DNA of 64,000 nucleotides from positions 400,396,001 through 400,460,000 of the forward strand of contig OZ024740.1 in the NCBI GenBank assembly GCA_964016885.1, read 5' to 3'. The notes under the pieces were generated by a model, which was not told the origin of the DNA, did no database searches, and saw only the letters and a program-made list of their open reading frames with translations. This DNA comes from Eledone cirrhosa. Its lineage: Eukaryota. Position numbers and translations under genes: made by a program. Positions 5,278-56,156 of the stretch are shown here, one piece after another (position 1 is the first letter of the stretch; each line of letters starts with the position of its first letter).

Positions 5278-5453
5278 ACGAAGGAGGTGTGGTAAGGAAC
5301 CAGATGGACCATAACGCACCAGAGTACTCAATACTTAGGGTAGTAGAGTGGGTAATAGGAAAATGTTTAAACCCGACGGCAGAGCTCAAACCGTTTCGAC
5401 GGCTTTTTCTGGACTTCAGAAATAGCCGTCGAAACGGCTTGAGCTTTTTCCTA
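5278..5453. mobile_element. Family B fold-back remnant
   Basis: acgaaggaggtgtggtaaggaaccagatggaccataacgcaccagagtactc... then gagctcaaaccgtttcgacggct / agccgtcgaaacggcttgagct hairpin. TA runs on both flanks. Confidence 0.85.
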
Positions 5454-6011
5454 TATATATATATATATATATGTATATATATATATATATATATAAAATG
5501 GAATAGAATGAAATGAAATGAAATTTCTCACTCTTAGTACAGCACTTACTTAAATGTAACAAAAATATATAATGGTATTAGAATGAAATAGTATGGGAGA
5601 ATATTAAATGTAACGTTTACAAACGGACAAAGCGAGCATTATAATAAATGTTCGCTAAACTGATACGTACATATATATATGTGTGCCTGTATGTATATAT
5701 ATATATATATATATATATATATATATATATATATATATATATATATATATATATATATATATATATATATATATATACATGCTACTGTACGTCTGTATGC
5801 ATATATGTACGTATACATACATACTTACATTTAAGTAAGTGACGTACTAAGAGTGAGAAATGAAATTTCATTTCATTCTATTCCATTTTATCGTTCTCGG
5901 TGCGCCTGGCCGACTGAACTCACTCGATATGCAAATTGGGCTGCTCAGCAGTTAATTTTCATAAGGAAAGTATATACTTTCGAACGTTCAACCATCTGGC
6001 AGAAGGGTATA

Positions 6012-6052
6012 CGGTGCTGACGATAGCTAACAAGCTTGAAACTAGTACATCG
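6012..6052 (+). ncRNA. Minimal hammerhead ribozyme
   Basis: cggtg-CTGACGA-t-agct-aaca-agct-t-GAAA-ctag-TA-catcg. Palindromic stem III ACTAGT; GUA cleavage triplet. Confidence 0.85.
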
Positions 6053-6657
6053 TTCCTGTGTCAGTGTTGAACAAAAAGGTGACGTGGTTGCCTTAACACC
6101 GTACGGCATAAATCAGGCTGTCCGTTTGTTTACAAACGGACAAAGCGAGCATTATAATAAATGTTCGCTAAACTGATACGTACATATATATATGTGTGCC
6201 TGTATGTATATATATATATATATATATATATACATGCTACTGTACGTCTGTATGCATATATGTATGTACGTATACATACATACTTACATTTATATATATA
6301 TATATATATATATATATATATATATATATATATATATATATATATATATATTCTGATATATATATATATATATATATATGATATATATTCTGATATATAA
6401 ACTGATACGTACATATATATATATGTGTGCCTGTATGTATATATATATATATATATATATACATGCTACTGTACGTCTGTATGCATATATGTATGTACGT
6501 ATACATACATACTTACATTTATATATATATATATATATATATATATATATATATATATATATTCAAGGGCGGTGCCCCAGCATGGCCTCAGCCGGATGGC
6601 TGAAACAGGTAAAAGAGTAAAAGAGTATATATATATATATATATATATATATATATA

Positions 6658-6734
6658 CAGGGTGTCACCCAAAAATGTATACACACTTTTTTTAGAATGC
6701 TGTTGAAGAATTTATACATTCTTTGGACACCCTA
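6658..6734. mobile_element. Tiny Tc1/mariner-type MITE
   Basis: TA-cagggtgtcacccaaaaatgtata ... tatacattctttggacaccct-aTA. Imperfect TIRs with TA flanks. Confidence 0.6.
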
Positions 6735-6740
6735 TATATA

Positions 6741-6953
6741 TGAACAATACAAACAATAACTCTGCTTGAGTGGGCCATGGTGCCCAAATCGCACCAGAGT
6801 ACTCAATACTTAGGGTAGTAGAGTGGGTAATAGGAAAATGTTTGACCCCGACGGCAGACCTCAAGCCGTTACGACGGCTATTTCTCAACTCAGATAGTCC
6901 AGAAATAGCCGTCGAAACGGTTTGACCTCTGCCATCGGGGTTAAACATTTTCC
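6741..6953. mobile_element. Family B fold-back remnant
   Basis: Shares cgcaccagagtactcaatacttagggtagtagagtggg. Arms aggaaaatgtttgaccccgacggcag... / ...ctgccatcggggttaaacattttcct. Confidence 0.85.
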
Positions 6954-52240: not shown

Positions 52241-52376
52241 ACAAAGGAATTGTGGTAAGGAACCAGATGGACCATAACGCACCAGAGTACTCAATACTTA
52301 GGGTAGTAGAGTGTGAAATAGGAAAAAAGTATGACCCCGACGGCAGAGCTCTGCCGTCGGGGTCATACTTTTTTCA
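52241..52376. mobile_element. Family B fold-back remnant
   Basis: Same tail, then perfect palindrome gaaaaaagtatgaccccgacggcag|agct|ctgccgtcggggtcatacttttttc. Confidence 0.87.
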
Positions 52377-52904
52377 TATATATATATATATATATATATA
52401 CACATGTATATATATATATATATATATACACATGTATATATATATATATATATATATATATATATATATATATATATATATATATATATATATATATATA
52501 TATTCATATACTCCATATATTTCCATATATCTTCATATATGGCTGCATATATAAAGAAAGCATTAAACATACTTGGTATGAAAACAACAGCAACAAGGAA
52601 AAGTACAACAGAGTGACTGATCTAAGCTAATTCGAAAAGCATAGACCTTACGTCATGGAATTTTTATTTTTCTATCATCGTAAATGTAGATCTTTATTTA
52701 GTTACTTTATTGTTACTATTCTTGAGCAGACCGCCTTGCTCTAACAAGCTGTTGAAACTTCTCAAACGTCTTGTAGAATCATAAAACATGAAATTTTATT
52801 AGAATTCCAGATTGAATAACATAGAATATATAATATTTATTTTACAAACAAATTAAAAGATAATAATAATAATAATAATAATAATAATAATAATAATAAT
52901 AATA

Positions 52905-54920
52905 AGTCTGCCCGTAATGTGGAAACTGTTGACGAGCATTGTGTCTGAGGAAATCTACCATCACCTCCACACAAACAACTTGTTGCCGGACGAACAGAAA
53001 GGATGCCGAAAGAAGTCACGTGGTACAAAGGACCAGTTGCTTATTGATAAGATGGTAATGGGGAATTGCAGGAGGAGACACACTGATCTTGCCATGGGAT
53101 GGATAGACTACAGAAAGGCATTTGACATGGTGCCTCATTCCTGGATCACCAAAAGCCTGGAGATCTTCAGGGTGGCAGATAACATCAGACAGTTGCTGGG
53201 CAGGAGTATGGGGTCCTGGGAGACAGAGTTGACATCAACTGGAGTATCCTTGGGAAGCGTGAAGATCAAGAGAGGTATCTTCCAGGGAGATAGCCTGTCC
53301 CCTCTGTTGTTTGTCCTTGCCCTGATGCCCTTGACCATTATGCTGCGAAAAGTGAGAGCAGGATACAAGTTGGGAAGGGGAGAGCTTACCATCAATCACC
53401 TCCTCTTCATGGACGATCTTAAGCTCTTCGGGAAAAGTGAGAAGGAGTTGGATGTGCTTGTTGACACTGTCCGTATTTTCAGCAGTGATATATGTATGCA
53501 GTTTGGTATTGGTAAATGTGGAGTCATTGTGATGAGGAGGGGTAGGTTGAGCAGAAGTAACGGGATCCAGATACCAACAGGTGAGATGATAAAGGAAATT
53601 GACTCTGAGGAAGGATACAAGTATTTGGGCGTTCTGGAGGCTGATGGCATAAAGAACAAAAAAATGAAGGAATTGTTAAGAACTGAATACATTCGGAGAG
53701 TAAGGAGCGTATTGAAGTCACATCTGAACAGCAGAAATGCCATAAGCGCAGTAAATTCCCGAGCTGTGTCTATTATTAGGTACAGTGCGGGAATTCTGGG
53801 ATGGAATGTTGCTGAACAAAAAGAAATGGATAGGAAGACTAGGAAGCTATTGACTATCTACAACATGTTCCACAAGAGGAGTGATGTCGATAGACTCTAC
53901 CTAAGGAGATCTGAGGGTGGAAGAGGTCTTATCAGCATAGAGGACTGTGTTCAGATGGAGAAAAACAACCTATACAAATACGTGACCTATAGTAAGGAGC
54001 CAATGCTCAGAGCTGTACTGAAGGAGGGGACAGTAGGCCAGGGGATACCCAAGGAGGAAATAACATCAAGGAGGAAGAGCAGCCTTAAGGGAAAATCCCT
54101 TCATAGTACCTTCTTTGAGAAAACTGAATTTAGAGATCCACAGACATGGAACTGGTTGAGAAGAGGAGACCTCAAAAAGGCTACAGAAGGAATGCTAATG
54201 GCTGCGCAGGAGCAGGCCCTCAAAACGAAGTGGTTGAAGCACCATATCTACAAGGAGGAGGCTAGCCCACTGTGCAGGATCTGTGGAGAGAGAGAGGAGA
54301 CTGTGGCTCACATTGTGTCCGAGTGTAAACACCTAGCCCAGACCCACTATAAGGGCTGGAGACACGATGTGATGGGCAGGGTGATCCACTGGCACCTGTG
54401 CAAAGTAAACAATCTACCACATTCTGAGAAATGGTATGAGCATAGGCCAGAGGCGGTGATGGAGAACAGTCAGGTGAAGGTGCTGTGGGATTTTAGGATA
54501 CAGACGGACAAAAAACTGGAACACAATAGACCTGACCTGGTGGTTGTGGACAAAGAAAAAAGATCGTGCCTGATTGTGGATGTGGCCTGCCCGTTCGACA
54601 CGAGAGTGCAAGAGAAGGAGAGGGAGAAAATTAACCGATACCAGGACCTAAAGTGGGAGGTGAAAAGGATTTGGAACTGCCATGAAGTCAAAGTGATCCC
54701 GATTGTCATAGGCGCACTGGGGACTATCTCCAAAGGTTTCCAGGGATGGTTAAAGAAAATCGGCCCCTTCACGCTTTTTGGAACGCTTCAAAAGGCATGC
54801 TTGCTTGGAACGGCAAGAACCCTCCGATACGTCCTGAATATCTGAGGCTGCAGGTAGTGGCTTGATATTCAATCCAACGGACTTTCCAGTTAACCAACAT
54901 CAATGACTGAGATTCAAGGA
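52905..54920 (+). mobile_element. 5'-truncated R4/Dong-like non-LTR retrotransposon inserted in a (TAA)n microsatellite
   Basis: Starts abruptly after (TAA)n at 52860-52904. Uninterrupted RT-ZnF-RLE frame, ~75 bp 3' UTR, then degenerate (TAA)n again from ~54921. Confidence 0.92.
52917..54845 (+). CDS. Reverse transcriptase + CCHC zinc knuckle + restriction-like endonuclease (N-terminally truncated)
   Basis: RT motifs [44 protein letters not shown]; zinc knuckle [24 protein letters not shown] motif RPDLVV...DVACPFD...K. Confidence 0.95.
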
Positions 54921-55320
54921 ATAACAATAACAATTGTAATAATAATGGTAATAATAATAATAATAGTAGTAGTGGTAGTAGTAGTATAATGGTATAATAA
55001 TAGTAGTTAGTAGTAGTAGTAGTAGTAGTATAATAGTAGTAGTAGTAGTAGTAGTAGTAGTAGTAGTAGAAATAGTATTAGTAGTAGTATTAGTAGGATT
55101 ATTAGTATTCGTAGTATTCGTAGTAGTATTCGTAGTAGTATTCGTAGTAGTAGTAGTAGTATTCGCAGTAGTAGTCGTAATAGTAGTAGTAGTAGTAGTA
55201 GTAGTAGTAGTAGTAGTAATAGTAGTAGTAGTAGTAGTAGTAGTAGTAGTAGTAGTAGTAGTAGTAGTAACAACAATAACAACAAAATCAGCAATAACAA
55301 CAGCAACAAAAGTAATAATG
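54921..55320. repeat. (TAA)n grading into (TAG)n and (CAA)n
   Basis: Direct reading; forms the 3' flank of the Dong-like element. Confidence 0.93.
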
Positions 55321-55663
55321 TTTTCATTGTTGTAAGGATTAATGTTTACAGAATTGGTTTGTTTATATTACCCGAAATTTCTAACTTGTTAAATAGTATT
55401 TGAAATAGTAAGAGAAATGTTACATAGACATAGCACAACACACACACACATATATATATATATATATATATATATATATATATATATTATATATACATAT
55501 ATATATGCATATATATATATATATATATATATATATATATATATATATATATATATATATATATATATATATATATATATATATATATATATATATGCTT
55601 ATATATATATATATATATATGCTTATATATATATATATATATATATATATATATATATATATA

Positions 55664-56156
55664 CGATATTAAATAAATGGAAACTATATTTATAAAACCA
55701 TACTTATTTCATTATACATATTTCAGGGATACCAAATAAAAAAATGGTATACCTTCATCAGACAAAATACAATATATAAACAGTTTTATAAATAATTTTG
55801 ACGTACCCTATTAGAAGCGACCATTACTTTTGGAAGCTGTCTGGATAGTGATACGTTTATAATTATTTATAAACATATCAATATCCAGACAGCTTCCAAA
55901 AGTAATGGTCGCTTCTCATAGGGTACGTCAAAATTATTTATAAAACTGTTTATATATTGTATTTTGTCTGATGAAGGCATACCATTTTTTAATTTAGTAT
56001 CCCTGAAATATGTATAAGGAAATAAATATGGTTTTATAAATATAGCTTCCATTTATTTAATATCGTATATCTACTCCAAAAACTTGTCGAGTGCTTTATA
56101 TCAGTTATAAAATATTTACTTGTTGCATCCCAACAATTTTAAATAAAACTTTTGCA
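55664..56156. mobile_element. Family A fold-back remnant, tail on right
   Basis: ~200 bp inverted arms (55664-55865 / 55868-56068) plus tail to ...aacttttgca(TA)n. Confidence 0.9.

Follow-up and report, generated by a model that had tools for sequence, protein, structure and literature searches.

Penelope-like elements (PLEs) are the closest retrotransposon relatives of the telomerase reverse transcriptase (RT), and the formation of their inverted repeats and tails is named as an open task in PMC8557442. PLE insertions have an inverted truncated copy at the 5′ end and, optionally, a tail of 30–40 bp on one side (PMC8557442; PMC3846280). Hydra, a clade of PLEs whose endonuclease is C-terminal, is defined by RW[KR], DKT, and CxCx5C motifs and is characterized by hammerheads and (TA)n targeting (Craig et al. 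2021, PMC8557442). Poseidon PAc from an anole begins reverse transcription in vitro at two internal positions, one on either side of the tail; its protein nicks and extends both target strands, and a dimer is predicted for it (Frangieh et al. 2024, PMC11167929). In this study, we analyzed 64,000 nucleotides of Eledone cirrhosa DNA (GCA_964016885.1, contig OZ024740.1, positions 400,396,001 to 400,460,000; hereafter the window), in which truncated copies form families of two-armed, inverted insertions, one of them (family A) assigned to Hydra-clade PLEs. The two fixed outer ends of the family A insertions probably record two RT starts inside one RNA, each predicted to be positioned by one hairpin of the RNA leader.

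The layout in the window resembles that of published PLE insertions in its inverted pseudo-long terminal repeats (pLTRs) and its tail, and palindromes at the inverted junction are a further likeness (PMC8557442; PMC3846280). Whereas published tails measure 30–40 bp, those of families A, B, and H (Table 1) measure 75–91 nt, and those of two related loci, L001 and L005, measure 65–70 nt, which equals the spacing of their hairpins. PAc shares with the present elements the two internal starts bracketing a tail, the predicted dimer, and the nicking of both strands, which we propose here as well. It differs in belonging to another clade and in where it starts: the PAc starts fall within the open reading frame (ORF), in a stem-loop that is AC-rich, and show no homology to the target (PMC11167929). 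The sites of the present elements, by contrast, are in the leader; duplicated hairpins follow immediately on their 3′ side, and a conserved T-purine-T marks them. Non-LTR retrozymes (bioRxiv 10.64898/2026.07.22.740005) resemble these elements in being short, non-coding repeats that derive from PLEs and carry type I hammerheads, but they form tandem direct arrays in which each repeat has a hammerhead, whereas the copies in the window are dispersed inverted pairs of truncated copies. No such tandem array was found in the window, and the retrozyme reading was rejected.

The one-sided tail and the asymmetry of the arms are therefore already known from PLEs; what is new is the pair of twin hairpins, together with the rule that ends lie 6–7 nt before a hairpin. 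The words "hairpin," "stem-loop," and "leader" were not found in the main text of PMC8557442, and the parts of that paper covered do not describe a twin-hairpin leader or its fixed distance to both ends. Probes of six to 15 letters from families A, B, and C were either not diagnostic or not found in the supplement of PMC8557442. In the literature searched, which for PMC11167929 comprised the material outside its supplementary figures, we found no prior description of the hairpins.

Two-armed insertions have two fixed outer ends

The arms of the insertions were aligned reading outward and their junctions were mapped, and the window was compared with itself. Thirteen of the 14 two-armed insertions consisted of one short arm and one tailed arm, where about half would be expected if ends were picked independently (binomial p = 0.0009). 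For this count, A1 and A2 were taken as one insertion, which is likely from their arms, which are inverted and 98% identical. The one-sided tails were about 40–91 nt long. A first reading made from the sequence alone (hereafter the sequence-only reading) had claimed for families A to D that a fixed short end is paired with a tailed arm, and that both outer ends are fixed while the fold-back point varies. Both claims were borne out, the former by the arm alignments and the latter by the copies in the window.

Ten arm ends were mapped in family A. Five short ends lay at ..atatcg|TATA (19323, 28593, 28907, 47550, and 55664), and a variant short end at 37258 read ..atattg|TA with a 5-nt duplication. 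The four tailed ends (16968, 37693, 47230, and 56155) were 89–91 nt beyond the short-end position. The inner fold points varied, their distance upstream of the short end ranging between about 49 and 241 nt. The A1 and left A3 arms stopped no more than 4 nt apart (241 and 237 nt from the short end, respectively), and these stops (17293–17299 and 28822–28830) correspond to a T-run just upstream of the start of the A2 pLTR. The common stop possibly reflects run-off at the RNA 5′ end.

Each of the four family B insertions had a short right arm. The short ends at 5451, 6953, and 29485 read ..ttcc|TA, and that of B4, ..tttc|AT, was 1 base earlier than the other family B ends. Variants had been pointed out in the sequence-only reading at 37258 (family A) and 52376 (family B); both are real, with the B4 short end mapped at 52375. 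The tails of B1 to B4 were about 80, 91, 80, and 80 nt long, and the distal half of the B2 tail was diverged. In three of the four copies, the fold-back centers (5383–5445, 6860–6937, and 29380–29474) lay in or beside a native palindromic stem before GAAAC, and the fold points of those three copies are therefore not random.

Families H and I, which the sequence-only reading had not named, showed the same asymmetry. An inverted copy of its own tail lies inside the family I element (33660–33690), which suggests a nested or second-round event. Two further fold-backs, E (21046–21235) and F (22128–23658), were excluded from all counts because neither a hammerhead core nor a TA-bounded tail was seen in them.

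Assignment of family A, and probably of B and H, to the Hydra clade

A fragment of an endonuclease (EN) begins directly inside arm A1. This fragment (P0001) has 40% identity over 121 amino acids to P0002, a 699-residue RT-EN protein, and matches the profile of 119 Hydra-motif proteins with an E-value of 3.7e-30. It contains CDLC..E and CRH, which correspond to the CxxC and CxH motifs that surround the conserved E and N of a C-terminal EN in this clade; from Pfam it drew nothing beyond a weak match to GIY-YIG (E 0.019). Among the 119 relatives, RW[KR] was present in 114, DKT in 117, and CxCx5C in 116. The DKT, RWK, and CxCx5C motifs are missing from the family A copy in the window, which is 5′-truncated and has no RT beside it; its best relative, P0002, has both the RT motifs and the EN.

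A pattern scan of the window gave 18 hammerhead-like cores, compared with 1.6 in shuffles, and stems I and III were checked by eye. Families A, C, D, and H have a type I hammerhead in the pLTR in the sense orientation. The hammerhead cores of these families read outward, which indicates that the outer ends are 3′ ends. Rfam detected no hammerhead in these minimal forms and returned only sub-threshold microRNA-like matches from repeats. The outer ends of families A, B, and H abut TA tracts, as in (TA)n insertion, and inverted pLTRs with a one-sided tail, a trait of EN+ PLEs, were present.

By sequence, family A is assigned as 5′-truncated copies of a Hydra-clade PLE arranged in head-to-head pairs. 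Families B and H likely belong to the same clade, to which the tail hairpin described below is their one tie. The sequence-only reading had taken these ends for those of a PLE, and the EN fragment at A1, the hammerheads, and the Hydra-motif relatives support this identity. For family A, Naiad was ruled out by the C-terminal-type EN and the hammerhead (Naiad has an N-terminal EN and no canonical hammerhead), and Neptune was also rejected. The family A pattern had 0 matches in metagenome contigs, and Hydra protein searches of metagenome and viral contigs found no relatives.

A bulged hairpin occurs in the tails and twice in the leaders of related elements

A bulged hairpin common to the tails of families A, B, and H is composed of xCTC, an inner stem-loop, a two-base bulge, and GAGYRC (xCTC..TT-GAGYRC). 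The motif had 13 matches in the window, compared with 2.2 in shuffles, and 10 of these 13 were in the tails of the three families; it had no match in the tails of C, D, and I. We also used related loci, 10 from contigs in microbial assemblies and 20 further regions from one of these assemblies, which we infer to be animal host DNA. Fragments of Hydra-clade PLEs are numerous in the assemblies labeled bacterial (G001, with L069–L088, and G002–G005), with 54 matches in G001; animal host contamination is their likely source. At the loci from G001–G005, different families pile up within the same TA tracts.

In all six related leaders that were readable from the first hairpin to where the ORF starts, the motif was present twice before the ATG. 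The second hairpin was 13–33 nt before the ATG, and the spacing between hairpin 1 and hairpin 2 was about 62–70 nt in the five leaders measured. The order in the leaders of related elements is hammerhead, site 1, hairpin 1, site 2, hairpin 2, and start codon, where site 1 and site 2 are the positions of the ends described in the next section. For a pairing test, 24 non-redundant motifs were chosen by position alone. An exact 4-bp outer stem was found in 22 of them (1.4 expected), in three sequence forms (GCTC/GAGC, ACTC/GAGT, and GCAC/GTGC), and the inner stems gave 68 pairs in total versus 13.7 expected. Read as protein, the motif gives LS[TA][LF]. Of the 19 proteins that extend upstream, 14 have these residues at a distance of 14–18 codons ahead of their N-terminal YSTKNI-type motif, against 0.1 expected. 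By eye, the same hairpin is present in the tails of the published Hydra-2_Amil, Hydra-2_Ajap, and Hydra-1_Crog consensus sequences and occurs twice in the published Hydra-1_Ajap leader; these consensus sequences belong to one coral, one sea cucumber, and one copepod.

Most ends lie at a fixed distance before the hairpins

Each end was compared with a copy that continues into a hairpin, which gave 29 junctions that share 13 templates and are therefore not all independent of each other. A start 6–7 nt before the hairpin base was compatible with 23 of the 29 junctions. Short ends map just before hairpin 1 (site 1). In L001 and L005, each of which has a tandem leader together with a tailed 3′ end, the tail ends 4–7 and 4–8 nt, respectively, before hairpin 2, and the tail therefore corresponds to the spacing of the hairpins. 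In another family, four copies end 5–8 nt before a hairpin 2 that is linked by a 17-nt shared block. A T-purine-T starting at −8 to −6 of the hairpin was found in 17 of 22 cases (5.1 expected). The overlap with the TA tract was 2–8 nt at 18 of the 29 junctions and 0–1 nt at the other 11. In family F3, a TGT template gave a TAT junction, as a G:T wobble primer would give; family F4 bypasses a longer TATAT farther upstream; and the stop in L082, which is 7 nt before the hairpin, adjoins a flank other than (TA)n. Among the eight informative inverted pairs in the DNA of other animals, six were short plus tailed, one was short plus short, and one was tailed plus tailed. L005 also has a 66-nt terminal direct repeat, which equals the tail.

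Three other accounts of the end positions were rejected. The tail end is not the start codon, as hairpin 2 sits between the two in the leaders; the tail is not a coding sequence, as the spacer lengths break the frame across families; and the short end is not the hammerhead cleavage site, which is about 17–155 nt upstream.

A model of coupled priming and its alternatives

The order of the leader, the pairing of the hairpins, the positions of the ends, and the coupling of unlike ends are direct observations. For their origin, we tentatively propose that Hydra-clade PLEs integrate by coupled twin priming, in which hairpins bound by a dimer would act as rulers that place a 3-base U-purine-U primer site 6–7 nt upstream; such a scheme could well be correct. 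An RT-endonuclease, probably a dimer, would bind one hairpin per subunit, with the hairpins serving as RNA loading sites, and would nick a (TA)n tract on both strands. The 3′ end at each nick would pair with 1–4 bases of the U-purine-U at its site, G:T wobble being allowed, and both strands would then copy the same RNA toward the RNA 5′ end. The two cDNAs would have the same polarity on opposite target strands and would be joined head to head after variable truncation, which would result in an inverted pair with a variable center and a tail on one arm only. If this is true, twin priming explains the inverted arms, the one-sided tail, and the tail length in one step, and the hairpin is a portable cis-element of ~25 nt that sets the RT start inside an RNA. 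The twin hairpins and the 6–7 nt rule thus offer a testable model of insertion and a short signature for finding Hydra-clade ends and for predicting the tail length without an ORF.

Several observations weigh against two starts positioned by hairpins. In the window, A3 is the sole exception among the 14 insertions, with two short arms and no tail, and the like-ended pairs elsewhere (one short plus short and one long plus long) join it. Six of the 29 junctions fall outside 6–7 nt (5, 8, 8–9, 9, 12, and 13 nt; two of them with local changes), all 29 rest on 13 templates, and most copies from outside the window come from one assembly (G001). The evidence for site 2 consists of two within-element cases and four copies of one family, and hairpin 2, which is predicted for the window's own families, was not seen for them, as the window has no full-length copy. 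The hairpin is not a universal PLE rule, because families C, D, and I and one G001 family (L070) have the same asymmetry without the motif. Lone tails fold no better than shuffles (z −2.5 to +0.55), and PAc starts without homology to its target (PMC11167929). The link to the Hydra clade also has gaps: a search for Hydra-type ORF fragments adjoining families B and H found none; the pattern scan found in family B only the GAAAC half and no full hammerhead core; and the ~1.4 kb that separates A2 from the EN fragment has no assignment. Finally, two copies have their 5′ ends at the base of hairpin 1, beside a TA- or AATT-rich tract (L005:2955 and L088:3437). Priming alone does not account for these 5′ ends, which fit either cutting at site 1 or copying from a circular template.

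The main rival to the priming model, which these two copies favor, is cutting at the DNA level. The motif would then be a recognition site, as a duplex or an extruded hairpin, and the EN would cut a TA-like site 6–7 nt before it, resolving a tandem or circular intermediate. The 5′ ends of L005 and L088 fit such a cut and the sites resemble the (TA)n target; in addition, Craig et al. (PMC8557442) ascribed the tail to EN-mediated resolution, and the tail is needed for EN recognition in Drosophila virilis Penelope (cited in PMC11167929). However, the inner stems differ in sequence yet pair on the sense strand, several of them through G-U, which suits RNA. The TGT-to-TAT change of family F3 fits wobble priming, and for the anole PLE, the RT start sites seen in vitro coincide with the ends of its tail (PMC11167929). 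We therefore consider DNA cutting unlikely as the source of the two ends.

The sequence-only reading had proposed one priming event at the RNA 3′ end and one at an internal site, with TA microhomology to a (TA)n target. Spelled out, this would take a transcript that continues past the tail into the (TA)n beside it and anneals to the target, whereas the second start would be at an internal TA selected by microhomology alone. Its core, two priming events with both outer ends on the 3′ side, is still the best reading, but a start at the RNA 3′ end conflicts with L001 and L005, whose tail ends lie inside the leader, 4–8 nt before hairpin 2, so that both starts appear internal. TA microhomology fares similarly: the frequent T-purine-T near the hairpin and the overlaps of 2–8 nt are in its favor, whereas the 11 junctions with 0–1 nt of overlap, the bypassed TATAT in F4, and the L082 stop on a flank other than (TA)n are not, and the constant distance to the hairpin is left unexplained. 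As a whole, that model seems to us quite improbable, even though a tailed copy transcribed into flanking sequence could yield an identical tail end again, which may be a secondary route. Lastly, the asymmetry could postdate insertion, if sequence was deleted from an internal TA to the microsatellite at the flank or if (TA)n expanded at internal TAs. Slippage-like changes are indeed present at some junctions (left A4, H1, and H2). This origin predicts scattered ends and independent arms, but the ends are fixed across copies, 13 of the 14 insertions have unlike arms, and the hairpin spacing is kept across animals, which makes it very unlikely. Two RT starts inside one RNA, each set by a leader hairpin, thus remain the reading that we favor.

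Features of the window and other repeats

The coordinates of the insertions and associated features are listed in Table 1.

Table 1 Features of the two-armed insertions and related sequences in the window (positions from the first nucleotide of the window)
Feature	Positions	Strand	Basis
Family A inverted arm A1, 91-nt tail	16968..17299	-	Arm alignment
Hairpin 1 (bulged) in A1 tail, 7 nt beyond short-end site	17030..17051	-	
GIY-YIG endonuclease C-terminal fragment, assigned to Hydra-clade PLE, 5′-truncated, 1 in-frame stop	17297..17659	+	
Family A short arm A2; minimal type I hammerhead core 19227-19267	19083..19323	+	
Family A fold-back A3, two short arms	28593..28907	.	
Family A fold-back A4 (diverged subfamily): left short, right tailed, hairpin 37611-37632	37258..37693	.	
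Family A fold-back A5: left tailed (hairpin 47291-47311), right short	47230..47550	.	
Family A fold-back A6: left short, right tailed (hairpin 56073-56094)	55664..56155	.	
Family B fold-back B1: left tailed (hairpin 5324-5349), right short	5278..5451	.	
Family B fold-back B2: longer diverged tail (hairpin 6799-6824)	6742..6953	.	
Family B fold-back B3 (hairpin 29330-29355)	29284..29485	.	
Family B fold-back B4: short end without TA overlap (hairpin 52287-52312)	52241..52375	.	
Family H fold-back H1: hammerhead cores 28310-28332 and 28343-28365; hairpin 28243-28263	28201..28399	.	
Family H fold-back H2: diverged, approximate ends	32345..32525	.	
Family H lone tailed arm H3: hammerhead core 25865-25887, motif 25794-25815	25745..25890	-	
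Family C fold-back C1: hammerhead cores 4662-4684 and 4761-4783; ~40-nt tail; no GAGYRC hairpin	4498..4909	.	
Family D fold-back D1: ~61-nt tail; no GAGYRC hairpin	30792..31019	.	
Family D lone short arm D2: hammerhead core 32858-32886	32858..33046	+	
Family I inverted pair: ~42-nt one-sided tail; neither hammerhead core nor hairpin motif found	33396..33828	.	

The window is rich in (TA)n tracts and contains repeats of other kinds. In an additional repeat family (19682–19902, 28416–28478, and 32583–32812), one end is fixed at (TA)n and a hammerhead core was not found. An open RT ORF of 661 codons (52857–54845, plus strand; Pfam RVT_1) is flanked by (ATA)n and (AAT)n tracts and resembles a non-LTR element of the R4/Dong type with (TAA)n as its target, which we presume it to be; a fragment similar to this ORF lies at 12703–13773 on the minus strand. 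Two copies of a 650–700 nt repeat that starts at (TA)n are located at 22128–22812 and 23001–23658, and this repeat contains an old imperfect inverted pair and, by eye, has a tRNA-like look.

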